64,000 nt of DNA, taken from assembly GCA_040954595.2 (NCBI GenBank), contig JBECUI020000027.1:62001-126000 (forward strand), in the 5' to 3' direction. Position numbers and translations under genes: made by a program. Shown here piece by piece: positions 17,363 through 64,000 of this stretch; positions within the stretch are counted from its first letter, which is position 1, and each line of letters begins with the position of its first letter. The stretch is from Balanoglossus misakiensis. Lineage: Eukaryota; Animalia; Hemichordata. The notes beneath the pieces are model-generated. The model searched no databases and was not told the origin of the DNA. It was given only the letters and a program-made list of their open reading frames with translations.

Positions 17363-17928
17363 TTATCCTACCAGAATGCTCAGATAGAGAACTTCTCCGC
17401 TCCATGAGTTTTTGAAAAACTGTTCCATCCAGATACGCCATTGATGAGTCGATTCCAACAGGTAACGAGTCTCTCTTAGATCTCCTGGTTCACATTGCTC
17501 ATTCTCGGAAGCACTTACCTTGATTTCCTCAAGAGTCTCGGTGATATCTTCAACTCTACACACGGAGACACCGGCTGAACACATTTCAACTAAGGCTTCT
17601 TCAACGGAAGTTTCCCGGCGTTTATAACGCTCAATAATTGCTGTTTCAAATGGAAGCCGAAGTAGGGACAGGTCGCGACCTGTCCCTACTCTGCAGTGAT
17701 ATCCAACTTCCTGGTGTAATGTCCGGCACGAGTAACTTTTTGTGCATACGTAGGTTCGTATTTTTCAGCCTGAAGTAAACTCTCTACCTCCGCATAGAGC
17801 ATGCCATTCAAGGTTGCCTCATACAGATTTCTTTAACCTATTGGGCTCACCTGGTTCTGCATGAGACCTACATCGAGCTGTATGTTCTTTCTGTATGGGT
17901 TTTCTTTGACTTCATTCTGTCTTCCCTG
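17363..17928 (-). mobile_element. IS256-family transposase remnant (5' part) containing one REP palindrome
   Basis: Translates to LPFETAIIERYKRRETSVEEAL..M.SAGVS..RVEDITE, typical of the IS256 N-terminus; homologous to the units at 24.4-29 kb. Confidence 0.85.
17661..17690. repeat. 30-bp perfect palindrome, GTAG-type REP-like element
   Basis: AGTAGGGACAGGTCGCGACCTGTCCCTACT is self-complementary. Confidence 0.85.
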
Positions 17929-24295: not shown

Positions 24296-24401
24296 AGTCA
24301 GTCATCCTGAAATAGTTGCTTACCCTTTTAACATTCCCACAACTTCTTAGAGAAAATTTGAGGGTAGTGAGAATCGTATTTCAGAACTCCATAGTCTTCT
24401 G

Positions 24402-27400: not shown

Positions 27401-28956
27401 GGGAAACATCCGTTGAAGAAGCCTTGGCCCTTTGGGGAAGCAAGGTAAAGCCCTGGGACAATGAGCAATTTGAACCAGGATCTCTTAGTAGGGACAGGTC
27501 GCGACCTGTCCCTACTTCGGCAGCGACATAGTTGGATACGGAAAGGCTGTATTCGTTTTCTGCAATTTCCTTATTGTATACTAGTTTTGCGAGGTGTTTA
27601 ATTGGTAGTGTTTAAAAATTGCGCAGATTCTAAAAAGGCAAAAAATGTCCTCCAAAGTTGAAATGGAATCAAAAGCAAAACCATGCACACGGAGGACAAA
27701 ATGAGGTCAGAAAAGACCCCACGGGAAAGAGCATACAGATTGATGAAGGTCTCCTACAGAGCAGCCAAATGCTTAAAGAAACCGTAGGAGGAAACCTTGA
27801 ATGCCATGCTCAATGCGGAGGCAGATCCTTTACTTCAGGCTGAAAAATACGAACCTACGGATGCACAAAAAGATACTCGTGCTGGACATTACACCAGGAA
27901 GTTGGAGATCACTGCTTTCAAGAGTAGGGACAGGTCGCGACCTGTCCCTACTTCGGCTTCCATTCGAAACAGCAATTATTGAGCGTTATAAACGCCGGGA
28001 AACATCCGTTGAAGAAGCCTTGGCCCTTTGGGGAAGCAAGGTAAAGCCCTGGGACAATGAGCAATTTGAACCAGGATCTCTTAGTAGGGACAGGTCGCGA
28101 CCTGTCCCTACTTCGGCAGCGACATAGTTGGATACGGAAAGGCTGTATTCGTTTTCTGCAATTTCCTTATTGTATACTAGTTTTGCGAGGTGTTTAATTG
28201 GTAGTGTTTAAAAATTGCGCAGATTCTAAAAAGGCAAAAAATGTCCTCCAAAGTTGAAATGGAATCAAAAGCAAAACCATGCACACGGAGGACAAAATGA
28301 GGTCAGAAAAAGACCCCACGGGAAAGAGCATACAGATTGATGAAGGTCTCCTACAGAGCAGCCAAATGCTTAAAGAAACCGTAGGAGGAAACCTTGAATG
28401 CCATGCTCAATGCGGAGGCAGATCCTTTACTTCAGGCTGAAAAATACGAACCTACGGATGCACAAAAAGTTACTCGTGCCGGACATTACACCAGGAAGTT
28501 GGATATCACTGCTTTCAAGAGTAGGGACAGGTCGCGACCTGTCCCTACTTCGGCTTCCATTTGAAACAACAATTATTGAGCGTTATAAACGCCGGGAAAC
28601 ATCCGTTGAAGAAGCCTTGGCCCTTTGGGGAAGCAAAATAAAGCCCTGGGACAATGAGCAATTTGAACCAGGATCTCTTAGTAGGGACAGGTCGCGACCT
28701 GTCCCTACTTCGGCTTCCATTTGAAACAACAATTATTGAGCGTTATAAACGCCGGGAAACATCCGTTGAAGAAGCCTTGGCCCTTTGGGGAAGGAAGGTA
28801 AAGCCCTGGGACAATGAGCAATGTGAACCAGGATCTCTTAGTAGGGACAGGTCGCGACCTGTCCCTACTTCGGCAGCGACATAGTTGGATACGGAAAGGC
28901 TGTATTCGTTTTCTGCAATTTCCTTATTGTATACTAGTTTTGCGAAGTGTTTAATT
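24402..28956 (+). repeat. Tandem array of 7 units (596-759 bp) of a degenerate IS256 left end with REP insertions
   Basis: Units start with GGTAGTGTTTAAA at 24402, 24999, 25651, 26410, 27007, 27604, 28200; each has a frameshifted IS256 5' fragment (LNAMLNAEAD..RAGHYTRKL..ERYKRRETSVEEAL) and 2-3 palindromes. Confidence 0.93.
24722..28869. repeat. 16 copies of the 30-bp REP-like palindrome AG(T/C)AGGGACAGGTCGCGACCTGTCCCTACT
   Basis: Starts at 24722, 24882, 25318, 25534, 25972, 26132, 26293, 26730, 26890, 27327, 27487, 27923, 28083, 28520, 28680, 28840. Confidence 0.9.
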
Positions 28957-29469
28957 GGTAGTGTTTAAAAATTGCGCAGATTCTAAAAAGGCAAGGATAC
29001 TAAAGCTCTTCATAAGCGACAGATGCATCGGGTTGGCCTGAATCCATCGAAGAGTTTTTCCCCAAAGCACGATGGCAACGATGCGTTGTTCACTATTACC
29101 GGAATGTATTCTCAGTAGTTCCCCGTGAGAAGGTCTGTGAAGTTGCAGCAATGCCTGAACAATTCATGCACAAGAAGATTGTGATGATGCTCTTGAGAAG
29201 GCTCAACTGATTGAAGGGAAACTCCGCATATGAAACTTCCCAAGGCTGCTGACATGGTGAGAAACTATATCCACGAAACTCTTGAGCATTTCCCCCGATG
29301 GGGATTCGGCCCTTATGCTATCAGCTGCCAGGCTCAGGCAGATCATGGGAACAAAATGGAGTACAGAAAAGTATTTGAATATGGACTTACTTAAAGCGAT
29401 AAGGCAAGATGCACGTTAGGCTCTTTCAACATTGGAGATTTGAAAGTGCGCAAAATTCTTGACACTACC
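28957..29469 (+). mobile_element. Internally deleted IS256 remnant with both terminal inverted repeats
   Basis: IRL GGTAGTGTTTAAAAATTGCGCA at 28957; IRR TGCGCAAAATTCTTGACACTACC at 29447-29469; decayed FPKARWQRCVVHYYRNV segment; no target-site duplication recognised. Confidence 0.8.
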
Positions 29470-41558: not shown

Positions 41559-42839
41559 CTATTCTTCAAATGCAGCAATGGCATCCAAACTAACCTGTCT
41601 GAGGATAGCATCAAGTCTGCTTGGATCATCCATGAATTCAGAGAACATTGACAAGCCCACTTCGGCCACAGGAGGGGGGGTGGCCAAATCATAGTTAAAG
41701 GCAAAAACGTCAGCAGCCGCAACAGTGGCAGCAGCCTTCTGCATAATCACGTTGTAGCTGGAAGGGGCTATATTGACATTGGCCGACAAGGCACCCTGGG
41801 CATTCACCCATGCTGACTGCACTTCGGGATCAGAAACCATGAAGCTCAGGAATTCCTCTGCTCCCTTCAGGTTTTGAACATTCGATGAAATTACCAAACC
41901 ATCTACGGGCCCACAACCGCCTGAGGGATGGCACTGTTTATCGTGGGGAATTCAAAAAAGTCGTAATCTTCTCCGGCAACCAGGTCAACACTGTTCCAAT
42001 AACCAGTAATCCATGTCCCCATCAGGGTCATGGCGGCCTCACCCCGAGCCACCTTGTCCGCAGCATCGGTCCAGCTGTCCGCATTGGCATTGGGAGCGAA
42101 ATAACCAGCATCGATCATATTCTTCCAAACCGTCATAGCCTCTCTGACTTCGGGATCCGCATAGGAAGCCTTTCCTTCCATGAGTTCGGCCCGGTATGCA
42201 GGACCGGCACTACGAAGCAGCAGGTAATCAAACCAAAACTGTGCTGGCCAGCGATCCTTGGAACCAAGAGCAATGGGAATAACACCCCTTGCCTTCAGTT
42301 TTTCACAAAGATCCACAAAACCCTCTCTATCTTTGGGGAATTCAGAGATTCCAGCCTCTGCCATAACCTTGGTGTTATAAAACATACCCGCATAGTGGTA
42401 GTTAAAGGGAACAAGATAGCGAGATCCGTTGTACATGGTAGCACTGTCCGCTACGGATTTGGCAATCACATTGTCAAGTCCTGCTTTTTCCCACATAGCG
42501 TCAATTGTATGTAAGCCCCCTGCGTCTACAACAAATTGAGTACGAGCTCCAGCCCAATAGCTGAAAATGTCTGGAAGACTACCGCCAGCCGCCCGCACCA
42601 GGATATCGGTTTTAAAAATCTTCATGACCAACAGGACTATTAACCAGCGCAGTACCAGTCTTCTCAGTAAATTTGGCAACTTGCTCGTCAAAGGCCTTCA
42701 GTCCTAATTCTCCAGTAAAGTAATGGCTTATGGTTACTTCCTTACTTCCTCGACCTTGGCAGTTGAATAAGATAAAAGCTGACAAAACTACTGTTAATAA
42801 AGCAATAATCGCAGGTATGCGTTTTTTTGATGATAGCAT
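41559..42839 (-). pseudogene. Carbohydrate ABC substrate-binding lipoprotein, split by two frameshifts
   Basis: Three ORFs (42612-42839, 41903-42691, 41559-41897) join into one protein with lipobox LFNC; extra base in the A5 run at 42614-42618 and a missing base at the G3 run 41907-41909. Confidence 0.85.
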
Positions 42840-42885
42840 AACTTCCTTAACCTCCTGAAAAATCTATGTTTGTCTATTCCTCATG

Positions 42886-42904
42886 TTTGTTTATATCAAA
42901 CAAA
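42886..42904. promoter_or_regulatory. Candidate IclR operator
   Basis: TTTGTTT-atatc-AAACAAA inverted repeat in the divergent intergenic region, downstream of a minus-strand TTGACA (42945-42950). Confidence 0.45.
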
Positions 42905-43839: not shown

Positions 43840-44942
43840 AAACTTCAACTTTAAAGGTGGCTTTTATTGGAACCGGTCGCATTTCAGACCTACACGCTCT
43901 TGAATACATCGCCAATCCCAAGAGTCATATTGCCATACTCTGTGATCAAAATCAGGAAGCAGCAAAGAGCAAGGCTCAAACCTGGGGTTTGAAGGATTTC
44001 GAGATAGAAAGTGATTACCGTAAGGTTCTGCTTCGCAAAGACATCGATCTTGTCGAGATACTGTTACCGCATCATTTGCATAAAGCCGCAGCCCTGGCAG
44101 CCATTGAGGCAGGGAAAGCCGTCTCCCTGCAAAAACCCCTAGGTACAAATCTTGCTGAGGCAGAAGAGCTGCTCGGGGCGGTAAGGAAATCAAACTGCCC
44201 TTTCAGGGTTTTTGAGAACTTCATTTTCTATCCCCCGATTATGAAAGCCAGAGAGCTTCTTGAAGAAGGGGTCATAGGCGAACTTATGTCTATTCGCATC
44301 AAATCTAACCCAGGCTACAGCAAGACAGCCTGGAAGGTCCCTCCAGCATCCACTGCCTGGCGCCAGAACAGAAAAAGTTCTGGAGGAGGACCACTTGTTT
44401 TTGATGATGGCCACCATAAATTTGCCCTTGCCTGGTATTTTATGGGTAGCCCTGAGGAAGTGCATGCCTTTATTGGCCACACGGACCTGGGCGAGGGCCT
44501 GTATATGGATGCCCCATCCCAGATTAGCTTTCGTTTCCCTGGCCAGCGCATTGGTAATCTGGAGATTGTCTATTCTCCTGAGCTGGAGGTCCTGGGTAAT
44601 TACTATCCTCAGGATGATCGAGTGGAATTGACCGGCACAAAAGGGGTGCTTTGCATCAATGGCGGACATGGCCAATTAGCCGCTACCGCCCCCCTGCAAC
44701 TATACCGAGGAGCCAGGCTCAAGGAATACCACAACATCTCCACAGGTTGGCAGCATAGCTTCATTAATGCGACACGCCATTTCATTGATGCGCTTGAAAG
44801 CGGCTCAGAAGCCATGCTGACGGCTGAAAACGCCTGGGAAATTTTACGTTTTGCCCTGGCCGCTGAGCGTTCGGCGCATAGGGAACAAAGAGTTTTTTTG
44901 AATGAGATATCAACAAACTCTGCAGAAAAGGTGAACGAATGA
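43836..44942 (+). CDS. Gfo/Idh/MocA family oxidoreductase
   Basis: IGTGRIS, LPHHLH, LQKPL, GGGPLVFDDGHH. Confidence 0.9.
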   Translation: MKTSTLKVAFIGTGRISDLHALEYIANPKSHIAILCDQNQEAAKSKAQTWGLKDFEIESDYRKVLLRKDIDLVEILLPHHLHKAAALAAIEAGKAVSLQKPLGTNLAEAEELLGAVRKSNCPFRVFENFIFYPPIMKARELLEEGVIGELMSIRIKSNPGYSKTAWKVPPASTAWRQNRKSSGGGPLVFDDGHHKFALAWYFMGSPEEVHAFIGHTDLGEGLYMDAPSQISFRFPGQRIGNLEIVYSPELEVLGNYYPQDDRVELTGTKGVLCINGGHGQLAATAPLQLYRGARLKEYHNISTGWQHSFINATRHFIDALESGSEAMLTAENAWEILRFALAAERSAHREQRVFLNEISTNSAEKVNE

Positions 44943-46815
44943 AAGCTATTGAACTCCGCAGCGATGTGATACAGAAAAGGGCATGCCAAATAGTAAAACA
45001 AGGAGGACTGGAGCCCTGGATTGAATCATTAGAGAATAACGGACTGCTTGATATGCCCCTTGTCGAGGCCCTGGTGTTGGGACTGCTGCGGCAGGGCATA
45101 CGCAAGTATTTGGTAATTTTTGGTCATGGATCCACCGCCCTTGGCGAGGTGCTGCGCATTTATTCCAAGGAAAAATTGATTAAGTGTTTTTCTTTTCGTA
45201 ATGAAATCTCCATGGCCCACGCCGCGACCTCCCTTCGCTGGGTATTCGACGAACCGGTTGCCCTGGTCACTTCGATTGGTCCCGGTGCTCTGCAGGCCAT
45301 GTCCGCCTCCCTGGCAGCCAGTTCAAACGGCATCGGGGTTTATCACATTTATGGCGACGAGACAAGCGGCGGCGAAGGCTACAATATGCAGCAGATACCC
45401 AAGCCGGAGCAGGGACTGTTTGGCCAACTGACAGCAATAATGGGCCGGAGTTATACGCTCCACACCCCCATTGCCCTGAGAGAAGCCATGCGGCAGGGGG
45501 CAGCAACGGTGTTTCATCCGAGTCATGCCACTCCCTTCTTCATCAACCTTCCTCTCAACACACAGTGGGAATGTGTGCGGATACGTTTGGCCACCCTGCC
45601 TCAAAGACCAAAACAGGCCCCCCTTGTTACCGTCTGTGAGGATCGTTTTGACCAAGCGATCAAGCGTATAAAAGCTCATAAAAAATAGCCATAAAAATCG
45701 GCCGGGGAGCGGGGGGATGTGCTGCTGAGCTTAGAGAGTTGGTTGAGAAATCGGGAGCTGTGGCGGTACTGAGTCCTGGTTCCACTGGAGCCCTGGCAGA
45801 TGCTCACAAGCAAAACATGCATGTTGGTGGTTCTAAAGGATCCATCAGCGGTAATTTCGCCATGGACAATGCGGAATTATTGATTGTCATAGGCTCCCGA
45901 GCCGTTTGCCAGAGTGATTGTTCTGGCATCGGCTGGCCCAGGGTCTCTGAGGTTATTAACATCAACACCGATCTTATAGATGCCCATCACTACCACAACA
46001 CAACAGCGCTTGTCGGTGATGCCAAAGAAACCCTGAAGCGCCTTGTTCAAGGTCTTGACGAACTTCGCGAGCAGTCCACAGATTGGTTGAAGGCCTGTGC
46101 TGAGGCCAAAGACAAATGGCAAAATCTCCTACGGGAACGCAGCACTGGAAGGGGAAAGTTGGATGTTGTATGGGGACGTGAGGTACTCACCCAACCCCAG
46201 GCCATTCATGTTGTGGCGGAATTCTGCAAACAACAGGAAGCGCTTAAGTTCTTTGATGCCGGGGACGTGCAGGCTAACGGATTTCAGATTGTTACGGATG
46301 ACAAGCTCGGAACGACCTTTACAGAATCGGGGGCTTCTTACATGGGTTTTGCCGTTTCGGCCCTGACGGCTTTGGGTATTGCCGATAGGAAATGCTATGG
46401 GGTGGCCTTTACTGGTGACGGATCTTTCATGATGAATCCTCAGGTCCTAATCGACGGTGTAGAACACGGTGCCCATGCCACCATTGCTCTTTTTGACAAT
46501 AGGCGTATGGGAGCCATCAGTGCCTTGCAGCTAGCCCAGTTCGGCTTTGATTTTCAAACCAACGATCATGTTGATATTGACTATGTCAAGTTGGCCAGTG
46601 CCGTGTCGGGTGTTAAAGCTTTATTTGGTGGTTATGACCGCCAAAGTCTTATCTCGGCTCTGAAGGAGGCAAAAGCGTATAAGGGAATCAGCCTCATACA
46701 TATTCCGGTTTATTTTGGTAAGGATCCCACGGGTAGTATGGGGGCGTATGGACAATGGAATGTCGGAAACTGGAGTGCTGCGGTCCAGGAGAAATATCTG
46801 CAATCAAGAATCTGA
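44939..46815 (+). pseudogene. TPP-dependent enzyme (IolD-like), one frameshift
   Basis: IFGHG, RNE..MAHAA, TSIGPGA (IolD-like N-terminus) and GDGSF..N..DN TPP motif; one extra A in the A6 run at 45680-45685 would join the two ORFs. Confidence 0.8.
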
Positions 46816-52484: not shown

Positions 52485-52689
52485 GAATTCAAGTTTTGAG
52501 CTGCTCTGCCGCCGAACTTAAAACCCTATGCTGCTATACCAAGCACCGGCAAACTAGGCTGGTCCACAGATGACTGCTGCATCAGCGATCTGGCAGCACC
52601 CTCCCCTAGCACATCATTTCCCTTAGGTACCCAATTCCTGCAAGAAGCCCTCGATACCAGACAGATCCTCACCTGCCAGTAGGCGAATA

Positions 52690-53045
52690 ACATAGCTTGC
52701 TATCATGGTAATATATTGGATCCACAGAGACGGTGAGTTGACTTATCTGTTCTACAGAAGAATATCAAATCCCTGGCAATCAATGCCGGGATATGCCGTC
52801 GTAAAGACAATAAGCAATCAGACAGAAAAGGATAGAACTCCCCTGGAAACCCTAATACCAACCGATGCTTGCTTACACAGAAGAGCAATCGCGGCGGTAG
52901 GAAAAGAGCTGGGAAGTAACAACAGACATTACCGGCATGTTGCGGCTTGGGGGCCTGCCCAAAACATTCTCCGGATTTTCTTCGTAAGGTAAATCCGAGA
53001 TGATCATTCCCTGCGTCTTAGCATCCAGGAACATCTTCAACACAT
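52690..53045 (-). pseudogene. Possible tryptophan synthase alpha remnant
   Basis: Fragment GMIISDLPYEE resembles the TrpA G.I.PDLP.EE motif; the rest is heavily decayed. Confidence 0.35.
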
Positions 53046-53092
53046 TTCCTGCAACCTGCTTTAAACGGAGAAATATAAATTTCCCATCCTGA

Positions 53093-54590
53093 TTAATTAT
53101 CCAAAATAATCAATTCGAACACATGAAATTGTGGCATATAGTCATCAACAGAGAACCTCCAGGTACCCTCTAGTGACGTTACTATAGTGGGAATTTGTAG
53201 GCAAAAATAGGTATTGGGTCTACTTCCAAAAGCTGTTTCATCTCCCAATACATCAGCATTAACAACTGTACTACCAAAAATACCATATCCATCAGATATG
53301 ACGCTCAGTGTGGGTGTTTCTTGAGTGTAATAAGGGGAAACGTTTTTCGTAGCATAAGTCCTTATTACACCTGGAATGATTATTGTTTGTCCCAAATATG
53401 CTTTAACGTCTCTTCCTATGCTTCCCCAATCCTGAGATTCTGCCAAGGTGGTAGCGATTGATAGGGATTGATCACTTTTGTATTGCGATCCACCCTCATA
53501 TTCTATGCCCATATACAGGTTGTATTCTGTTTCCGGAGTAAGATTTAAAATGGGCATCCATTGAGCTTTGTTTTTTTGCAAATTATACGTTTGCCACAAA
53601 GGGGTAGCTGCCTTTAAAGCCCCTATATCTACGGGAGCTGAGGCAGTTTTGGGCAGGGCAATAGCGTATATAACAGCATTTTGTACATCCACCTGCAGTT
53701 CGGCGTAACCTACCCAGAGGTAAGAACCGGGTTGTGTATGATCGTTCATATCACCAGTAGAAAAAGTTAAAAAAGGAGTATAGCGAAGGCGCAGAATATA
53801 TTCTCCAATAGTTCCGTTTTCGGCAGTAATAACTACGGTTTGGTCTTCTTCCACTACGGCAAAATCCTCTTTCAATAAAGGAATATTGAGTGCTGACAAA
53901 TTTGTTTGTGGTTCCCCGTCCAATGACAGCGTAGCATTTTGGGAGATTTCAAAGGATAGACCCACGACATCAGCCGTGGTGTTATAATCGTAATTGACCT
54001 GAATTGTCCTATTAGAAAATTCAACCACTACAGAAGGATCTAAAGAAGACACACCGGCAATAAGGGCTTCTGTATTCGGAATATAAACTATTTTTAGCGT
54101 GTACTCATTGATCGTTTGTCCGTCTTCGGCAATTACCTTTATGAGAAGGGTTTTACTTGAGGTTAAATCAAAAGTGTATTGATTGTTATCGACGAGTGTT
54201 CCATCTATTTCCAGGCTAGCTCCAGCTGAGATGTCGAACATAAGGGTAGCGTTGTTTATTTCCGTTTCATAGGAACGTGTAAGTGTGATGATTTTCTGAC
54301 CTTCATCAAAATCGACAGCAGTCTGCATTGTTTCGTCGGTCAAACTGACCGTGGAAATGGCTGCTTGGTCCGACTTAGGCAGGTTACAGGAGAAAAGAAC
54401 CATGACTATTCCGAGAACAAGAGAGGCAAAACTGAGCTTATGCCGGATTAACTTAGATAACGATCTTCGTGCGCGTGGAGGGGGGTGAGTGAGTGAGTGA
54501 GTGAGTGAGTGAGTGAGTGAGTGAGTGAGTGAGTGAGTGAGTGAGTGAGTTTTTACTCACTTCACAGCCGTTTTGATGGATATGTTTCAT
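53093..54590 (-). CDS. Phase-variable surface lipoprotein (locus 1; two cadherin-like/DUF5018-type domains plus FN3-like domain), out of frame
   Basis: True ATG at 54590 behind GAGGA; (ACTC)16 in the leader; signal RRSLSKLIRHKLSFASLVLGIVMVLFSC; ATG-to-body distance 187 nt; two V.AE.G...EY.L motifs. Confidence 0.8.
54487..54550 (-). repeat. (ACTC)16 simple sequence repeat in the leader of locus 1
   Basis: 64 nt of GAGT on the + strand; G6 tract adjacent. Confidence 0.97.
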
Positions 54591-54606
54591 TGCATTTTCC
54601 TCATCT

Positions 54607-54682
54607 TATATAGAATTTATTTCAGGGTAAGCCAAGTACCCTTTAACCTTGATAGTTTAACACAGTTATTGCTGCTTATCTA
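54607..54682 (-). promoter_or_regulatory. Two candidate sigma70 promoters in the shared lipoprotein module (repeated upstream of loci 2-4)
   Basis: TAGATA-N17-TAAACT with extended TGn (54682-54654) and TTGGCT-N17-TATATA (54635-54607). Confidence 0.5.
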
Positions 54683-54889
54683 CACCCTTTCCTTGTTTGT
54701 CTATTTTTTTGCTTCTAGGGGGGATAGTGCGGAGCTTGGTTTATGGTTCAATCGGCCTAGGATTCCTGAACTTGCCTGAACCTTTTTAAAAAGGCAGCAC
54801 CTAAGCGATGTCTTGGGGGAAGCGATTGGTTATTCTTAGTCCGATTCCGCCATCTGGAGGCTGGGGCGGGGCCTTAAGGGTTGGCGGGC

Positions 54890-55557
54890 CCTACCTCCCG
54901 GGCCGCCGGGGGCTAAACCGAGCCACACAGCCCCGGGGACGCCGACTCCCGAAGCGGCACCGGCATCGCTGGACCGAAGCAGGCGGGGCCTTAAAGTTTA
55001 GTGCCCACTACCCTCCGGGCCGCCAGGGGCTAAACCGAACCACACAGCCTCGGGGACGACGCCTCACGAAGCGGCACCAGCATCGCTGGACCGAAGCAGG
55101 CGGGGCCTTAAAGTTTAGTGCCCCAGGGCCTGCCGGGGCTAAACCGAACCACACAGCCTCGGGGAGGCCGCCTCACGAAGCGGCACCGGCATCGCTGGAC
55201 CGACACAGGCGGGGCCTTAAAGTTTAGTGCCCCCGGGCCGCCGGGGCTAAACCGAGCCACACAGCCTCGGGGAGACCGCCTCACGAAGCGGCACCGGCAT
55301 CGCTGGACCGAAGCAGGCGGGGCCTTAAAGTTTCGTGCCCACTACCCTCCGGGCCCGCCGGGGCTAAACCGAAGACCACAGCCTCGGGGACGCCGCCTCA
55401 CGAAGCGACACCAGCATCGCTGGACCGAAGCAGGCGGGGCCTTAAAGTTTAGTGCCCACTACCCTCCGGGCCGCCAGGGGCTAAACCGAACCACACAGCC
55501 TCGGGGAGGCCGCCTCACGAAGCGGCACCGGCATCGCTGGACCGAAGCAGGCGGGGC
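54890..55557. repeat. Array of 6 GC-rich 108-117 bp units
   Basis: GCTAAACCG anchors at 54912, 55029, 55138, 55246, 55363, 55480. Confidence 0.93.
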
Positions 55558-55563
55558 TCTTGT

Positions 55564-57181
55564 CTATTCGGTTAGATAATCGCTTTCTCCCGTGTAGTTT
55601 ACCGCCTTTACCCGGTATGTTAATCCCTGCCATTTCTGCACGTCATGAAAGCTAAGCTCCTGAGTATACTCACCTTCAGCGTTATATGCCGACACAACAC
55701 CAAGGCTCAGCCAGGACTCCCCTCCGTCTCTGCTGTACTCCACGACATAGCCCGAAGGCGCATCGGTATCCACCGTGATGGCGTTAGTAGAATAGGGTGT
55801 GTAGACTGTTCTTTGGTTAAGAGATGAAGCTGTCCAACTCAACTGGTAACCGTTGTTGTAATTCACACCTAAACCGCTCGGCGACGGGGGAACTAAGGGA
55901 CTCGTATAGATACTGTATAAGAAGTTAGCACGCTCCCCTGCAAAAAATAAGTCTATATACAGGTAAAATCTATAGGCAAAGTTTGGTAAATCTTCACTTT
56001 GGATAACATTCCTCTCATCTTCTAAAATATTAGCACCAATCGCTGGAGTCTCAAAATCTTTCCAATAGATATACTCACTGGCAGAATAGGCATCGACCCG
56101 ATTCTGACTAGCAAGACTACGGGGAGTCGCTCCATTGACCAAGCTTTCTTTTGCATCAAAAAATCTGAGGTCATAGAGGGAGGCATCGGCATCCGGACCC
56201 CCTGTAAATCCCTTTGTTACCCCAAAATTCCATATCATATCGGTAATGCTGGGGGCCAATGTCTCCACCGTCAATCGAGCATAGGCAGGAACATAACCGA
56301 GGTTATCTCTGTCGAACCAGGGCTTTGTGTATTCCTTTGTTAGTCCATAGAAGCCTCCTGTAGTTCCAACTAAGGAAAGGTTTAGTCTTGCGGCATAGGT
56401 GGAAACCTTAAGGGATGCAGAAGTTTGCGTTTCTCCCTGGGCGTTTTTGGAAACTATCCTGTAGTGATATTGCGTTCCCCCCTGTAGTGAATCATCTTCA
56501 TACGTTTCTGCAGAAAGATTCTCAGCCAGGGTTTCCCACCTTGTAGCGTCTACAGAGCGTTCAACGGCGTAACTTGAGGTGCTCGCGTCTATGCTCCGCC
56601 AGGCTATTTTTATCTGATCAGCGCTTACGAACATGGGCTGGAGACCGACCACGGGTAAGAACTGCGCTGGGGTAAAAGCTTTGATACTCTTTAACGTGTA
56701 GGTGCTTTCCTCTCCGTTCTCAGCAGTGATGATAATCGTGTAGCTTTGGTCATTATCTGAAAAGTCAAAACGATATTGGTTGGAGCTAATGATTTCGTCA
56801 TTGATAGATAGTGTGGCCTTCTGCGAGATATCAAAGATCAAAACAACATGGGTGGCTGTGGCTTCATCAGTGCGGCTAAGGGTGATGGTTTTGCTTGTTT
56901 CATCAAGTTCTACTCTGACGCCAAGGGTGTCGCTTTGGGGGGCGACCGTGTTAATGAAAGATTGATCCGACTTAGGTAGGTCACAGGAGAAAAAAACCAT
57001 GACTATTCCGAGAACAAGAGAGGCAAAACTGAGCTTATGCTGGATTAACTTAGATAACGATCTTCGTGCGCGTGGATGGGTGAGTGAGTGAGTGAGTGAG
57101 TGAGTGAGTGAGTGAGTGAGTGAGTGAGTGAGTGAGTGAGTTTTTACTCACTTCACAGCCGTTTTGATGGATATGTTTCAT
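55564..57181 (-). CDS. Phase-variable surface lipoprotein paralogue A (cadherin-like, FN3, variable domain, FN3), out of frame
   Basis: ATG 57181; (ACTC)15; lipobox FFSC; distance to body ATG 181 nt; FN3 motifs W....SY.VERS.D...W and Y.D..L..GT.Y.YRI. Confidence 0.85.
57082..57141 (-). repeat. (ACTC)15 simple sequence repeat in the leader of locus 2
   Basis: 60 nt of GAGT. Confidence 0.97.
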
Positions 57182-57483
57182 TGCATTTTCCTCATCTTAT
57201 ATAGAATTTATTTCAGGGTAAGCCAAGTACCCTTTAACCTTGATAGTTTAACACAGTTATTGCTGCTTATCTACACCCTTTCCTTGTTTGTCTATTTTTT
57301 TGCTCCTAGGGGGGGGGATAGTGCGGAGCCTAGTTGATGGTTCAATCGGCCTAGGATTCCTGAACTTGCCTGAACCTTTTTAAAAAGGCAGCACCTAAGC
57401 GATGTCTTGGGGGAAGCGATTGGTTATTCTTAGGCCGATTCCGCCATCTGGAGGCTGGGGCGGGGCCTTAAGGGTTGGCGGGC

Positions 57484-58020
57484 CCTACCTCCCGGGCCGC
57501 CGGGGGGCTAAACCGAGCCACAGAGCCTCGGGGACGACGCCTCACGGAGCGGCACCAGCATCGCTGGACCGAAGCAGGCGGGGCCTTAAAGTTTAGTGCC
57601 CCCGGGCCCGCCGGGGCTAAACCGAGCCACACAGACTCGGGGAGGCCCGCCTCACGAAGCGACACCAGCATCACTGGACCGACACAGGCGGGGCCTTAAA
57701 GTTTAGTGCCCCCGGGCCCGCCGGGGCTAAACCGAGCCACACAGACTCGGGGAGGCCGCCTCACGAAGCGACACCAGCATCGCTGGACCGAAGCAGGCGG
57801 GGCCTTAAAGTTTAGTGCCCCCGGGGCTGCCGGGGCTAAACCGAGCCACACAGCCTCGGGGACGACGCCTCCAGAAGCGGCACCAGCATCGCTGGACCGA
57901 AGCAGGCGGGGCCTTAAAGTTTAGTGCCCCCGGGCCCGCCAGGCTAAACCGAGCCACACAGCCTCGGGGAGACCGCCTCACGAAGCGGCACCGGCATCGC
58001 TGGACCGAAACAGGCGGGGC
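57484..58020. repeat. Array of 5 GC-rich 108-110 bp units
   Basis: Anchors at 57507, 57616, 57726, 57835, 57943. Confidence 0.93.
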
Positions 58021-58026
58021 TCTTGT

Positions 58027-59648
58027 CTATTCAGTTAGATAATCGCTTTCTCCCGTGTAGTTTACTGCCTTTACCCGGTATGTTAATCCCTGCCATTTCT
58101 GCACGTCATGAAAGCTAAGCTCCTGAGTATACTCACCTTCAGCGTTATATGCCGACACAACACCAAGGCTCAGCCAGGACTCCCCTCCGTCTCTGCTGTA
58201 CTCCACGACATAGCCCGAAGGCGCATCGGTATCCACCGTGATGGCGTTACTAGAATAGGGTGTGTAGACTGTTCTTTGGTTAAGAGATGAAGCTGTCCAA
58301 CTCAACTGGTAACCGTTGTTGTAATTCACTCCTAAACCGCTCGGCGACGGGGGAGCTAAGGGACTCGTATAGATACTGTATGAGAAATAAGCACTCTCCC
58401 CTGCAAAAAAGAAGTTTACAAATAGGTTAAATCTATAAGCAAAATTGGGTAAATCTTCACTTTGGATGACATTACTCTCATCTTCTAAAATATTAGTGCC
58501 AATATGTGGAATCTCAAAATCTTTCCAATAGATATACTCACTGGCAGAATAGGCATCGACCCGTTGCTGAGTAGCAAGAGCACGGTAAGTCGCTCCATTA
58601 ACCAAGCTTTCTTTTGCATCATAAAATTGGATTATATAGAGGAAGGCATCGTTATCCGCCCCCCCTGTAAATCCCTTTGTTACCCCAAAATTCCATATCA
58701 TATCGGTAATGCTGGGGGCCAATGTCTCCACCGTCAATCGAGAATAGGCAGGAGCATACTTGTTGGCTTCTGATAGATCAGCTACCCAGGGCTTTGTGTA
58801 TTCCTTTGTTAGTCCATAGGTCCCTCCGCTCCCTCCGCTTCCTCGAGAGTAAGTGGAAACCTTAAGGGATGCAGAAGTTTGCGTTTCTCCTTGGGAGTTT
58901 TTGGAAACTATCCTGTAGTGATATTGCGTTCCCGCCTGTAGTGAATCATCTTCATACGTTTCTGCAGAAAGATTCTCAGCCAGGGTTTCCCACGTTGTGC
59001 CATCTGCAGAGCGTTCCACGGCGTAACTTGAGGTACTTGCGTCTATGCTCCGCCAGGCTATTTTTACCTGATCAGCGCTTACGAACATGGGCTGGAGACC
59101 GACCACGGGTAAGAACTGCGCTGGGGTAAAAGCTTTGATATTCTTTAACGTGTAGGTGCTTTCCTCTCCATTCTCAGCAGTGATGATAATCGTGTAGCTT
59201 TGGTCATTATCTGAAAAGTCAAAACGATATTGGTTGGAGCTAATGATTTCGTCATTGATAGATAGCGTGGCCTTCTGCGAGATATCAAAGATCAAAACAA
59301 CATGGGTGGCTGTGGCTTCACCAGTGCGGCTAAGGGTGATGGTTTTGCTTGTTTCATCAAGTTCTACGGTGACGCCAAGGGTGTCGCTTTGGGGGGCGAC
59401 CGTGTTAATGAAAGATTGATCCGACTTAGGTAGGTCACAGGAGAAAAAAACCATGACTATTCCGAGAACAAGAGAGGCAAAACTGAGCTTATGCTGGATT
59501 AACTTAGATAACGATCTTCGTGCGCGTGGAGTGAGTGAGTGAGTGAGTGAGTGAGTGAGTGAGTGAGTGAGTGAGTGAGTGAGTGAGTGAGTGAGTGAGT
59601 GAGTGAGTTTTTACTCACTTCACAGCCGTTTTGATGGATATGTTTCAT
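58027..59648 (-). CDS. Phase-variable surface lipoprotein paralogue B, out of frame
   Basis: ATG 59648; (ACTC)20; distance to body ATG 194 nt; most divergent central domain. Confidence 0.85.
59529..59608 (-). repeat. (ACTC)20 simple sequence repeat in the leader of locus 3
   Basis: 80 nt of GAGT. Confidence 0.97.
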
Positions 59649-59949
59649 TGCATTTTCCTCATCTTATATAGAATTTATTTCAGGGTAAGCCAAGTACCCT
59701 TTAACCTTGATAGTTTAACACAGTTATTGCTGCTTATCTACACCCTTTCCTTGTTTGTCTATTTTTTTGCTCCTAGGGGGGGGATAGTGCGGAGCTTGGT
59801 TTATGGTTCAATCGGCCTAGGATTCCTGAACTTGTCTGAACCTTTTTAAAAAGGCAGCACCTAAGCGATGTCTTGGGGGAAGCAATTGGTTGTTCTTAGG
59901 CCGATTTCGCCATCTGGAGGCTGGGGCGGGGCCTTAAGGGTTGGCGGGC

Positions 59950-60820
59950 CCTACCTCCCGGGCCGCCAGGGGCTAAACCGAGCCACACAGACTCGGGGAC
60001 GACGCCTCACGAAGCGGCACCAGCATCGCTGGACCGACACAGGCGGGGCCTTAAAGTTTAGTGCCCCCGGGCTGCCGGGGCTAAACCGAAGACCACAGCC
60101 TCGGGGACGACGCCTCACGAAGCGACACCAGCATCGCTGGACCGAAGCAGGCAGGGCCTTAAAGTTTAGTGCCCCGGGCTGCCGGGGCTAAACCGAGCCA
60201 CACAGCCTCGGGGACGCCGACTCCAGAAGCGGCACCGGCATCGCTGGACCGACACAGGCGGGGCCTTAAAGTTTAGTGCCCCCGGGCTGCCGGGGCTAAA
60301 CCGAACCACACAGCCTCGGGGACGCCGACTCCCGAAACGGCACCGGCATCGCTGGACCGACACAGGCGGGGCCTCAAAGTTTAGTGCCCCGGGCTGCCGG
60401 GGCTAAACCGAGCCACACAGCCTCGGGGAGGCCGCCTCCAGAAGCGGCACCGGCATCGCTGGACCGAAGCAGGCGGGGCCTTAAAGTATAGTGCCCCCGG
60501 GCTGCCGGGGCTAAACCGAGCCACACAGCCTCGGGGAGGCCGCCTCACGAAGCGGCACCGGCATCGCTGGACCGAAACAGGCGGGGCCTTAAAGTTTAGT
60601 GCCCACTACCCCCGGGCCGCCGGGAGCTAAACCGAGCCACACAGCCTCGGGGACGACGCCTCACGAAGCGGCACCGGTATCGCTGGACCGAAGCAGGCGG
60701 GGCCTTAAAGTTTAGTGCCCACTACCCCCCGGGTCACCAGGGGCTAAACCGAGCCACACAGCCTCGGGGACGACGCCTCACGAAGCGGCACCAGCATCGC
60801 TGGACCGACACAGGCGGAGC
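59950..60820. repeat. Array of 8 GC-rich 107-117 bp units
   Basis: Anchors at 59972, 60080, 60187, 60295, 60402, 60510, 60626, 60743. Confidence 0.93.
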
Positions 60821-60826
60821 TCTTGT

Positions 60827-62445
60827 CTATTCGGTTAGATAATCGCTTTCTCCCGTGTAGTTTACCGCCTTTACCCGGTATGTTAATCCCTGCCATTTCT
60901 GCACGTCATGAAAGCTAAGCTCCTGAGTATACTCACCTTCAGCGTTATATGCCGACACAACACCAAGGCTCAGCCAGGACTCCCCTCCGTCTCTGCTGTA
61001 CTCCACGACATAGCCTGAAGGGGCGTCGGTATTCACGGTAATGGCGTTAGTAGAATAGGGTGTGTAGACTGTTTTTTGGTTAAGAGATGAAGCTGTCCAA
61101 CTCAACTGGTAACCGTTGTTGTAATTCACTCCTAACCCGCTCGGCGACTGGGGAGCTAAGGGACTCGTATAGATACTGTATAAGAAGTTAGCACGCTCCC
61201 CTGCAAAAAATAAGTCTATATACAGGACAAATCTATAGGCAAAATTTGGTAAATCTTCACTTTGGATAACATTACTCTCATCTTCTAAAATATTAGCGCC
61301 AATCTTTTGAGTCCCAAGATCTTTCCAATAGATATACTCACTGGCAGAATAGGCATCGACCCGTTGCTGAGTAGCAAGAGTACGGGGAGTCGCTCCATTG
61401 ACCAAGCTTTCTTTTGCATCAAAAAATGTGAGTTCATAGATGGAGGCATCGGCATGCGGCCCCCCTGTAAATCCCTTTGTTACCCCAAAATTCCATATCA
61501 TATCGGTAATGCTGGGGGCCAATGTCTCCACCGTCAATCGAGCATAGGCAGGAGCATAACCGAGGTTATCTCTGTCGAACCAGGGCTGCGTGTATTCCTT
61601 TGTTAGTCCATAGAAGCCTCCTGTAGTTCCAACTAAGGAAAGGTTTAGTCTTGCGGCATAGGTGGAAACCTTAAGGGATGCAGAAGTTTGCGTTTCTCCT
61701 TGGGCGTTTGTGGAAACTATCCTGTAGTGATATTGCGTTCCCGACTGTAGTGAATCATCTTCATACGTTTCTGCAGAAAGATTCTCAGCCAGGGTTTCCC
61801 ACCTTGTAGCGTCTGCAGAGCGTTCCACGGCGTAACTTAAAGTACTTGCGTCTATGCTCCGCCAGGCTATTTTTATCTGATCAGCGCTTACGAACATGGG
61901 CTGGAGACCGACCACGGGTAAGAACTGTGCTGGGGTAAAAACTTTGATACTCTTTAACGTGTAGGTGCTTTCCTCTCCGTTCTCAGCAGTGATGATAATC
62001 GTGTAGCTTTGGTCATTATCTGAAAAGTCAAAACGATATTGGTTGGAGCTAATGATTTCGTCATTGATAGATAGCGTGGCCTTCTGCGAGATATCAAAGA
62101 TCAAAACAACATGGGTGGCTGTGGCTTCATCAGTGCGGCTAAGGGTGATGGTTTTGCTTGTTTCATCAAGTTCTACGGTGACGCCAAGAGTGTCGCTTTG
62201 GGGGGCGACCGTGTTAATGAAAGATTGATCCGACTTAGGTAGGTCACAGGAGAAAAAAACCATGACTATTCCGAGAACAAGAGAGGCAAAACTGAGCTGG
62301 GGCCGGATTAACTTAGATAACGATCTTCGTACGCGTGGAGGGGGTGAGTGAGTGAGTGAGTGAGTGAGTGAGTGAGTGAGTGAGTGAGTGAGTGAGTGAG
62401 TGAGTTTTTACTCACTTCACAGCCGTTTTGATGGATATGTTTCAT
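60827..62445 (-). CDS. Phase-variable surface lipoprotein paralogue C, out of frame
   Basis: ATG 62445; (ACTC)15 plus G5 tract; distance to body ATG 182 nt. Confidence 0.85.
62346..62405 (-). repeat. (ACTC)15 simple sequence repeat in the leader of locus 4
   Basis: 60 nt of GAGT. Confidence 0.97.
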
Positions 62446-62747
62446 TGCATTTTCCTCATCTTATATAGAATTTATTTCAGGGTAAACCAAGTACCCTTTA
62501 ACCTTGATAGTTTAACACAGTTATTGCTGCTTATCTACACCCTTTCCTTGTTTGTCTATTTTTTTGCTCCTAGAGGGGGGATAGTGCGGAGCTTGGTTTA
62601 TGGTTCAATCGGCCTAGGATTCCTGAACTTGCCTGTACCTTTTTAAAAAGGCAGCACCTAAGCGATGTCTTGGGGGAAGCGATTGGTTATTCTTAGGCCG
62701 ATTCCGCCATCTGGAGGCTGGGGCGGGGCCTTAAGGTTAGGATGGGC

Positions 62748-62964
62748 CTTACCCCCCGGGCCGCCAGGGGCTAAACCGAGCCACACAGCCTCGGGGACGC
62801 CGCCTCACGGAGCGACACCAGCATCGCTGGACCGAAACAGGCGGGGCCTTAAAGTTTAGTGCCCACTACCCTCCGGGCCGCCAGGGGCTAAACCGAACCA
62901 CACAGCCCAGGGGAGACAACATCACGAAGCGGTACCGGCATCGCTGGACCGAAACAGGCGGGGC
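62748..62964. repeat. Array of 2 GC-rich 117 bp units
   Basis: Anchors at 62770 and 62887. Confidence 0.9.
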
Positions 62965-62970
62965 TCTTGT

Positions 62971-64000
62971 CTATTCGGTTAGATAATCGCTTTCTCCAGT
63001 GTAGTTTACTGCCTTTACCCGGTATATCAATCCCTGCCATCTCTGCACGTCATGAAAGCTAAGCTCCTGAGTATACTCACCTTCAGCGTTATATGCCGAC
63101 ACAACACCAAGGCTCAGCCAAGACTCCCCTCCGTCTCTGCTGTACTCCACGACATAGCCCGAAGGCGCATCGGTATCCACCGTGATGGCGTTACTAGAAT
63201 AGGGTGTGTAGACTGTTTTTTGGTTAAGAGATGAAGCTGTCCAACTCAACTGGTAACCGTTGTTGTAATTCACTCCTAAACCGCTCGGCGACGGGGGAAC
63301 TAAGGGACTCGTATAGATACTGTATAAGAATTTAGCACTATTCCCTGCAAAAAATAAGTCTATATACAGGTAAAATCTATAGGCAAAGTTTGGTAAATCT
63401 TCACTTTGGATAACATTCCTCTCATCTTCTAAAATATTAGTGCCACTATCTTGACTCCCAAAATCTTTCCAATAGATATACTCACTGGCAGAATAGGCAT
63501 CGACCCGATTCTGACTAGCAAGAGGACGGGGAGTCGCTCCATTGACCAAGCTTTCTTTTGCATCAAAAAAGTCGACTTGATAGAGGGAGGCATCGGCATG
63601 CGGCCCCCCTGTAAATCCCTTTGTTACCCCAAAATTCCATATCATATCGGTAATGCTGGGGGCCAATGTCTCCACCGTCAATCGAGCATAGGCAGGAGCA
63701 TAACCGAGGTTATATCTGTCGAACCAGGGCTTTGTGTATTCCTTTGTTAGTCCATAGGATTGTGCATCTCCAGCTAAGGAAATGTTTAGTCTTGCGGCAT
63801 AGGTGGAAACCTTAAGGGATGCAGAAGTTTGCGTTTCTCCTTGGGCGTTTTTGGAAACTATCCTGTAGTGATATTGCGTTCCCGACTGTAGTGAATCATC
63901 TTCATACGTTTCTGCAGAAAGATTCTCAGCCAGGGTTTCCCACGTTGTAGCGTCTGCAGAGCGTTCAACGGCGTAACTTGAGGTACTTGCGTCTATGCTC
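62971..64000 (-). CDS. Surface lipoprotein paralogue D, 5' end outside the window
   Basis: Frame stays open upstream of the ORF-track TTG at 63681 (..KVSTYAARLNISLAGDAQSYGLTKEY..) and the DNA aligns with paralogues A-C to the window edge. Confidence 0.88.
   Translation of the reverse strand, partial: SIDASTSSYAVERSADATTWETLAENLSAETYEDDSLQSGTQYHYRIVSKNAQGETQTSASLKVSTYAARLNISLAGDAQSYGLTKEYTKPWFDRYNLGYAPAYARLTVETLAPSITDMIWNFGVTKGFTGGPHADASLYQVDFFDAKESLVNGATPRPLASQNRVDAYSASEYIYWKDFGSQDSGTNILEDERNVIQSEDLPNFAYRFYLYIDLFFAGNSAKFLYSIYTSPLVPPSPSGLGVNYNNGYQLSWTASSLNQKTVYTPYSSNAITVDTDAPSGYVVEYSRDGGESWLSLGVVSAYNAEGEYTQELSFHDVQRWQGLIYRVKAVNYTGESDYLTE

Follow-up and report, generated by a model that had tools for sequence, protein, structure and literature searches.

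A tandem array of predicted lipoprotein genes

In the 64,000-nt stretch of DNA analysed here (the window), five related gene bodies lie in tandem on the minus strand. Four are seen with their leaders: copy A (60827..62344), copy B (58027..59531), copy C (55564..57080) and a divergent paralogue that is the last gene of the array (53093..54485). The fifth, copy D (62971..63999), is cut by the window end, and its switch lies outside the view. Across copies A–D, identity to copy A is 88–95%; the divergent paralogue is 35% identical to copy A over a match limited to 172 N-terminal residues, and its leader is near-identical. No stop or frameshift interrupts any of the five bodies, and the four with leaders are open, as the first-pass annotation had stated in calling the bodies intact.

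Copy A is laid out as a predicted signal peptide, an Ig-like domain, an Fn3 domain, a variable middle domain and a C-terminal beta domain. Copy B carries an Fn3 match (E 4.8e-6) and has the middle domain that diverges most, and the divergent paralogue carries a cadherin-like domain (E 5e-6). The signal peptide has a hydrophobic core (mean KD 2.4) preceded by 5–6 K/R; its predicted length in the ON state, about 65 aa, exceeds that of usual signal peptides. The lipobox of copy A reads VMVFFSC (Cys codon 62246–62248), and all four genes have MVFFS-C or MVLFS-C, with S at −1, F or L at −3 and V at −4. All four predicted products thereby satisfy the SpLip rule, which asks for A/G/S/N/C at −1, L/I/V/F at −3 and/or −4 and an uncharged lipobox (quoted in PMC6529012). 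Given the lipobox and the Fn3/cadherin-like domains, the cargo is predicted to be a surface molecule; the type of domain is the one basis on which an adhesin role may be proposed. Two AlphaFold models were of low confidence (mean pLDDT 42).

A tetranucleotide tract sets the reading frame

The leaders open with ATGs at 62445 (copy A), 59648 (copy B), 57181 (copy C) and 54590 (last gene), each with a Shine–Dalgarno-like GAGG, read from the sequence, 8 nt ahead (62454..62457, also 59657, 57190 and 54599; minus strand). In all four, a pure CTCA tract begins 41 nt 3′ of the ATG. Copy A (leader 62308..62445, tract 62345..62404) has (CTCA)15 followed by a C5 junction at 62340–62344; copy B (leader 59499..59648, tract 59532–59607) has (CTCA)19 and a junction of C; copy C (leader 57050..57181, tract 57081–57140) has (CTCA)15 and CCCA; and the last gene (leader 54453..54590, tract 54486–54549) has (CTCA)16 and C6 (CCCCCC). 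Repeat analysis of the four leaders gave 100% purity, with pure tracts spanning 61–79 nt. Earlier counts of 16, 15 and 15 units stand, whereas the 20 given for copy B becomes 19 when counted as CTCA, the same tract having been read as ACTC.

The unit is not divisible by three and sits between the start codon and the mature protein in every leader. Recalculation reproduced the first-pass ATG-to-body distances of 187, 181, 194 and 182 nt for the last gene and copies C, B and A (1, 1, 2 and 2 modulo three), with 0 of 4 in frame; measured 9 nt further, as far as the two codons that precede the lipobox Cys, these values become 196, 190, 203 and 191 nt. The OFF readings likewise came out unchanged, at 45 aa (ATG 54590), 43 aa (57181), 49 aa (59648) and 45 aa (62445), that of copy A ending on the second TAA. 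It was also correct that a single slip per gene restores the ON frame: the full-length frame opens with one unit lost in the last gene (497 aa) and copy C (537 aa), or one gained in copies B (541 aa) and A (540 aa). The leader flanks are 99–100% identical over 150 nt on the 5′ side and 94–100% identical over 90 nt on the 3′ side; leaders B and C have the same sequence over both intervals, with tracts 4 units apart.

We considered two ways around the tract. An alternative in-frame start 3′ of it was rejected: there is no ATG, GTG or TTG between the tract and the hydrophobic core, so export requires reading through the tract. The sole downstream ATG lies 5 codons before the Cys, and automatic gene calling will place starts at this false site. 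We also rejected T-AAA-AAC as a site where −1 ribosomal frameshifting could rescue the frame: by the usual rules it is an incomplete slippery heptamer, and it sits in the hairpin loop.

The pure tracts themselves exceed chance expectation. Of the 401 Spirochaetota genomes sampled, only 4 contained tracts of at least 6 units. An order-level census found the tract in 0 of 99 genomes, using a pattern that required two non-C bases 5′ of the tract and can miss tracts; a 5-unit tract occurred in 0 of the 5 genomes of the nearest hits, and the leader pattern had 0 matches in genome_contigs and 0 in metagenome_contigs.

A proposed phase-variable switch

This anatomy, which can be read directly from the DNA (start site, tract, frame, lipobox, intact bodies, and unequal tract lengths in near-identical leaders), is the textbook layout for slipped-strand phase variation. 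We propose that these predicted surface-lipoprotein genes, arranged in tandem and each out of frame at a CTCA tract within its signal-peptide-coding leader, are probably turned ON and OFF at random when slipped-strand events add or remove a single 4-nt unit; switching and expression are both inferred from sequence. In this model, the CTCA tract would slip by one unit within the living population, one phase out of three would allow translation of the full lipoprotein, and the other two would terminate early at TAAGTTAA. The ON product would be lipidated and displayed on the surface, where an Ig/Fn3 stalk might present the variable middle domain in an adhesin-like role, and gene conversion might shuffle bodies between the copies.

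Stop codons flanking the tract

Two short elements flank the tract on the minus strand. To its 3′ side, TAAGTTAA (62308..62315, also 59499–59506, 57045–57052 and 54448–54455) contains the first stop of each wrong frame and, read in frame, falls within Ser-Lys-Leu-Ile. To its 5′ side, TGTGAAGTGAGTAA (62408..62421, also 59611–59624, 57144–57157 and 54553–54566) is a degenerate copy of the repeat in inverted orientation; it is predicted to pair with the tract start as a fold-back and is the source of the 5′ off-frame stops. The earlier observation that each element closes both wrong frames holds in all four leaders: these frames are shut within 25–37 nt on the 3′ side and 6–10 nt on the 5′ side.

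Such closeness raises the idea, implied in the first-pass annotation, that the stops were selected as a purpose-built guard of the ambush type, keeping OFF products short and blocking the other frames. A 5′ double stop within 12 nt has P = 0.009, which speaks for design. By contrast, the 3′ double stop has P = 0.12–0.20 against the genes of the window and P = 0.39–0.44 under synonymous recoding of the same peptide; the 3′ stops are at background frequency, not beyond chance. Because the leader flanks are near-identical, the motifs count once, as one inherited event, rather than four times. The 5′ stops are a by-product, because an inverted copy of this repeat naturally carries TGA. Moreover, the 5′ double stop closes no ATG-opened frame: the only off-frame ATGs 5′ of the tract, at −14 and −5, are both ended by the TGA that overlaps the start codon, an off-frame GTG at +25 has no Shine–Dalgarno-like word ahead, and in the third frame no start follows the stop at −13. 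Judged by the ambush hypothesis, as set out in the available portion of its source, off-frame stops showed no excess over the null other than the 5′ excess attributed to the inverted repeat copy. A selected guard is improbable, and a design behind the bracketing stops is unsupported.

The inverted repeat copy invites a second speculation. Placed 5 nt 5′ of the tract, it might fold back in sliding registers, tune how fast or in which direction the tract slips, or else stall ribosomes, and so hold about ten orphan adhesin-like lipoproteins mostly OFF, the cassette having been copied ahead of divergent bodies by recombination. We give this extension little credence.

Four genes OFF: chance, bias or error

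With 0 of 4 loci in frame, the probability without bias is 0.198, matching the first-pass figure of about 0.2 and its caution that a bias was unproven; 8 independent OFF loci would be required for P < 0.05, and for ten loci the no-bias probability is 0.017 with all ten OFF and 0.10 with one ON. Finding all four OFF is most likely just the result that a 1-in-3 switch gives most often at four loci, possibly with a contribution from selection against display. A real OFF bias, from selection against display or from biased slippage, would be an addition to the switch and not exclusive of it. It has precedent in the available excerpts of a study of opa genes (PMC13183285), in which 1.7 on average were in frame, compared with an expectation of 3.4, and paralogues of near-identical sequence were in frame 1.54 times less often; copies A–D of the array are close to one another (88–95% identity to copy A), and all four visible loci are OFF. 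Set against this are the P value of 0.198 and a likelihood ratio of only 4.1 for 5% ON over 33% ON; the ON fraction could be as high as 0.45 (95% upper bound), and by a rough estimate about half of the family lies outside the window. We regard such a bias as possible rather than probable.

At least one OFF call might instead reflect a consensus error, or the most frequent allele in a mixed population, with the true sequence in frame. The junctions lend themselves to this reading: one more C in its C5 run would bring copy A into frame, as would one fewer in the C6 run for the last gene. Three apparent frameshifts occur at homopolymers elsewhere in the window (near 41905, 42615 and 45680), and single-copy depth is only about 10 in the sequencing run that contains the sequence. 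Yet even if all three were true errors, the rate would be about 3 per 919 runs of at least four, and the 19 such runs in the leaders would be expected to hold about 0.06 errors, tract-unit errors being outside this estimate. The three breaks are also confined to two genes of a neighbouring sugar uptake/catabolism cluster, two of them within one gene, and the remaining 37 of the 39 genes are without such a split. In addition, a contig of run X1, possibly from the source sample, matches positions 52500–54125 with 0 differences. An erroneous call at one or more loci is thus unlikely, and consensus error is unlikely as the cause of all four OFF states.

Selection and probable exchange among the copies

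Both scaffold regions had pN < pS in 6 of 6 pairs, and this purifying selection suggests that ON states do occur. In the middle domain, which includes a gapped, poorly alignable segment, pN exceeded pS in 5 of 6 pairs. All three partitions were present among 19 informative sites (7/7/5), and these incompatible sites point to probable exchange between copies; no clustering of the 19 sites into tracts was detected (P 0.48).

Exchange of this kind would also fit an array that is decaying, or a store of silent donors for conversion into an expression site elsewhere, with the tracts as passengers, and the window does contain pseudogene-like genes and IS-like remnants. Each visible copy nonetheless has its own Shine–Dalgarno-like word, ATG, pure tract and lipobox, the five bodies carry no stop or frameshift, a 4-nt slip restores each gene, and the scaffold shows pN < pS; we consider decay or donor storage very improbable. 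Returning to the ON/OFF switch, its anatomy supports it well, whereas the 'silent repertoire' of the first-pass annotation was an overstatement: only 4 of about ten leaders are visible, and purifying selection on the scaffold suggests ON states. The accompanying idea, that only a few genes are on at any moment, needs nothing beyond the 1-in-3 arithmetic.

Comparison with known systems

The closest analogue is the opa family of Neisseria gonorrhoeae, with CTCTT repeats in the signal-peptide-coding region (excerpts of PMC13183285 and PMC5354566). As far as those excerpts go, both are surface-protein multigene families in which a leader repeat sets the frame and one phase in three is ON, with parts that are conserved and parts that vary, sequence exchange among paralogues and mostly OFF states in assemblies. 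Unlike opa, which encodes integral outer-membrane proteins at dispersed loci, the array has a 4-nt unit and a tandem arrangement of Fn3/cadherin-like lipoproteins, and its switching is predicted from sequence. The array genes do not belong to the Opa family: no such Pfam/NCBIfam match and no sequence homology was found, the unit differs, and a lipobox is present.

Haemophilus influenzae carries tetranucleotide contingency loci at lic1 and hgp in addition to mod. The mod tracts have 17–38 tetranucleotide units (PMC3546556, in part) and resemble ours, within the part of that source available, in that the ORF carries a 4-nt repeat at its 5′ end, tract lengths are similar and one-unit changes toggle the frame. 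The array differs from the Haemophilus influenzae loci in its CTCA unit, its phylum and cargo, and the one leader common to a whole paralogue array. In the spirochaete Treponema pallidum, the tpr genes and tp0126 undergo poly-G phase variation that is transcriptional, through a promoter homopolymer (PMC7864442, in part). On that partial account, repeat length switches predicted surface antigens in both cases, whereas the array has its tetranucleotide within the coding frame. Cassette conversion is the source of variation in Borrelia vls/vmp and Treponema tprK, which use a single expression site and silent donors that lack their own start and export signal. These too are paralogous, variable spirochaete surface proteins with traces of sequence exchange, but in the array a separate start, switch and lipobox go with every visible copy.

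Literature searches, chiefly open-access, returned no paper joining simple sequence repeats and phase variation in Treponema and Brachyspira, none on tetranucleotide phase variation in Brachyspira and none on CCAA-repeat hgp phase variation in Haemophilus influenzae; the available sections of a review (PMC11868660) describe no spirochaete system of such a kind. The layout is known in kind; what is new is the lineage and the orphan lipoprotein cargo. The all-OFF state and the stop codons contribute little, because the opa OFF bias has already been published. A frameshift switch driven by a repeat is a standard mark of living in or on a host, and an Opa-like repertoire of orphan lipoproteins extends the mechanism to a new spirochaete lineage and cargo.

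Relatives and intergenic sequences

The owner of the array is likely a spirochaete without a close relative in the databases searched. Aligning the bodies against metagenome_contigs gave 276 candidates and 0 confirmed relatives. Length-limited protein searches gave one weak Fn3 match at 10% coverage for copy A (7995 candidates scored) and no match for the divergent paralogue among 4483 candidates, and all Atlas matches were below 0.9. By these searches the Fn3/cadherin-like lipoproteins appear to be orphans.

Promoter prediction listed none at threshold ahead of the leaders, and Rfam gave no credible match. Upstream of each leader is an inverted repeat, AGGGTA-N7-TACCCT (62479..62497, also 59682–59700, 57215–57233 and 54624–54642), a possible operator that showed no excess over shuffles (z 0.09). 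An integron attC site was considered for the intergenic repeat and rejected, as the gene stop lies outside the core motif and folding gave z of −0.5 and +0.4. This G+C-rich tandem repeat, with a unit of 108–117 bp, has 8 units at 59957..60817, with further arrays at 54865–55557 (6 units), 57491–58020 (5 units) and 62750–62964 (2 units).

A predicted lipoprotein gene array with all four visible leaders out of frame

Four minus-strand genes share a common leader design. An SD-like GAGG precedes the ATG; 41 nt further on comes an uninterrupted (CTCA)n tract, and after a short junction each gene continues with a basic segment, then a hydrophobic core and finally a lipobox Cys. The lipobox satisfies the SpLip rule quoted in PMC6529012, as a check of the sequence showed, and the genes are predicted to encode lipoproteins. 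The leader ATGs are at 62445 (copy A), 59648 (B), 57181 (C) and 54590 (a divergent paralogue, the last gene); a fifth family body, copy D, passes the window end. In all four visible loci the body is out of frame with the leader ATG (OFF). The tracts have 15 CTCA units plus CCCCC in A, 19 plus C in B, 15 plus CCCA in C and 16 plus CCCCCC in the last gene, giving OFF peptides of 45, 49, 43 and 45 aa, respectively. Our recomputation matched all frame and length figures of the first-pass annotation, including its claim that a one-unit slip restores each gene: the resulting frames are 540, 541, 537 and 497 aa. A five-codon upstream ORF, MRKMQ (62446–62459, minus strand), occupies the same place in every leader, and its TGA overlaps the leader ATG; it may be a chance occurrence, or it could affect initiation by coupling or damping it.

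The tracts of the array have no interruptions and are of a rare kind, tracts of at least six CTCA units occurring in 4 of the 401 Spirochaetota genomes that were sampled. Because the B and C leaders have identical flanks on both sides yet differ by four units, tract length changes faster than point mutation. No in-frame start was found between the tract and the hydrophobic core, so an exported product requires the tract to be read in frame; intact bodies under purifying selection suggest that this occurs in part of the population. Switching would proceed by the mechanism described for opa, the phase-variable surface-protein genes of Neisseria gonorrhoeae (PMC5354566, PMC13183285), and for Haemophilus tetranucleotide loci (PMC3546556); the contigs here do not resolve the tracts. 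Judged on its sequence, the array appears to be a real, well-formed contingency-locus array and a further example of a known mechanism.

An unlikely alternative is that one or more OFF calls are consensus errors. Two of them depend on a single base of a C5/C6 run, and homopolymers are also the site of three apparent frameshifts in other parts of the window, as assessed by domain coverage and translation in three frames: two affect a sugar-binding protein gene (41559–42900, minus strand), and the third affects an iolD-like TPP enzyme gene (44939–46815, plus strand). However, all three fall within one neighbouring uptake/catabolism cluster, a grouping that favours real pathway decay over error. 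Even if all were counted as errors, about 3 per 919 runs of at least 4 would predict about 0.06 errors for the four leaders, which together contain 19 such runs, an estimate that covers homopolymer errors alone, with whole-unit errors and a mixed population outside its reach.

The all-OFF state lies within chance. With one ON phase in three, four OFF loci have P = 0.198, in agreement with the earlier value of about 0.2 and the caution that a bias was not proven; these data cannot split bias from chance. Reaching P < 0.05 would take eight independent OFF loci, and, under a flat prior, the ON fraction has a 95% upper bound of 0.45. Across 219 genomes, a mean of 1.7 opa genes are reported in frame versus 3.4 expected, near-identical paralogues being in frame less often (PMC13183285). 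At the observed opa rate, four OFF loci would have P = 0.50. An OFF bias, if present here, would not be new, having already been established in opa.

Wrong-frame stops beside the tract

Stop codons in both wrong frames had been proposed to bracket the tract. On the 3′ side they are present, closing at 30–37 nt, but they are ordinary and within chance: both wrong frames close within 30–39 nt at 12–20% of positions in 34 window genes (10,098 codon positions), and in 39–44% of cases when synonymous codons are redrawn with the peptide kept. The four 3′ motifs have a single common origin.

The 5′ stops are unusually close to the tract (P = 0.009 for a distance within 12 nt), yet none of the frames they close is opened by an ATG. 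Reading from the off-frame ATGs (−14 and −5) already ends at the TGA that overlaps the start, and downstream of −13 the third frame lacks a start. These stops have a simpler cause than a guard role, mildly interesting in itself. The motif copies the tract repeat in inverted orientation, AGTGAGT being seven exact letters of (GAGT)n, which has TGA in every frame; such a match occurs in 31 of the 15,820 windows of 25 nt taken from genes of the window. Pairing of the motif with the tract start, across a short A loop, is predicted at −12.1 kcal/mol for RNA (z −3.5) and at −8.0 kcal/mol for DNA (z −5.1), z-scores that are inflated because this 36-nt piece was picked after the motif had been noticed; for the whole 111-nt leader, z is just −1.5. 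The inverted copy, which counts as one event and was not seen in four comparison genomes, may have been left by a fold-back event when the tract arose, or it may modulate slippage.

Bodies, leaders and intergenic repeats

Copies A–D, with 88–95% identity to A, carry an Fn3 domain at residues 124–198, with titin and Fn3 matches too. In the last gene the domain is cadherin-like, and identity to A, over the first 172 residues, is just 35%. Its leader is nevertheless 94–100% identical to the others and must therefore have been copied, or homogenised, onto a body that is older. Differences among A–D are concentrated in columns 201–375, where pN exceeds pS in five of six pairs, although this region includes a gapped segment in which such counts are unreliable; in both flanking regions pN is below pS in 6/6 pairs. 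All three four-taxon partitions are present among 19 sites (7, 7 and 5), without clustering (P 0.48), and the mixed partitions point to sequence exchange between copies. Length-limited protein searches and metagenome contigs yielded no true homologue of the bodies, and structure prediction gave no usable fold. With a variable domain on an Ig/Fn3 stalk, the proteins may be adhesins or surface antigens.

A G+C-rich tandem repeat of 108–117 bp lies between the lipoprotein genes, at 54865–55557 (six units), 57491–58020 (five), 59957–60817 (eight) and 62750–62964 (two). It had no Rfam match and folded no better than shuffles; it is likely a substrate for unequal exchange.

Elsewhere in the window, 24400–29000 holds seven to eight tandem copies of a ~597-bp unit that by eye resembles a transposase fragment, its ORFs having no Pfam match. 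A perfect 30-bp palindrome, with 17 occurrences in the window, breaks up this array, and near 17.6 kb (17475–17830) there is a single related copy in inverted orientation.

CTCA tracts in comparison genomes

In two comparison genomes of 24–26% G+C, (CTCA)15–20 tracts lie in short leader ORFs ahead of methyltransferase-like genes: G128:C9:1-1735 (L109), G128:C1:1239500-1246500 (L110) and G284:C191:3000-6695 (L111), the last a confirmed Methyltransf_11. An SD-like word and an ATG precede the tract (the ATG in 4/5 tracts, one at L110 lacking it), and each gene has an SD and ATG of its own. Fusion of leader to gene occurs in no phase; in one of three the leader ends at a stop that overlaps the gene start or lies just beyond it, and the remaining two stop 2–11 nt from the tract. 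A phase switch by translational coupling is possible from this layout. Our literature search found nothing on a switch of this coupling type, and the arrangement is possibly more novel than the lipoprotein array itself.

In G037:C35:18500-24000 (locus positions about 1640–1900), a (CTCA)6 leader ORF is followed by a hairpin and T-run that were recognised by eye; the gene downstream, at 231 nt, encodes an InlB-B-repeat (Flg_new) lipoprotein. In one phase the ribosome is brought over the hairpin, so that this could be a slippage-controlled attenuator. None of these loci is homologous to the array, and they therefore add no ON/OFF counts. In a fourth genome (G389:C1:2471885-2474908), a membrane-protein gene is preceded by a (CTCA)n tract of no fewer than 38 units that is split by a 100-N scaffold gap, which shows that such tracts break assemblies and get undercounted.

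Source organism and family size

Among genome contigs, the MiaB-like protein best matched a Spirochaetaceae MAG (65%); the best MurC match was 61%, and among 120 matches listed every one with an organism name was a spirochaete. This makes a spirochaete with no close sequenced relative the most likely source of the array. Three sequencing runs, all from one sample, matched the window. In the one containing 0.58 of its words (run X1), a 24.7-kb contig at depth 10.3 matches 52500–54125 with zero differences, and short contigs covering leader and bodies have depths of 108 and 91. This suggests a family of 9–10 members, a rough reading given that depth is not to be equated with copy number, which would place about half of the switches beyond the window. 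For the divergent paralogue, variant contigs suggest that additional genes of its type exist. A contig of run X1 links the region upstream of a leader (59785) to sequence 3′ of the last gene (52893); a search for local similarity between the two regions found none, and the junction may represent another arrangement of the array end.
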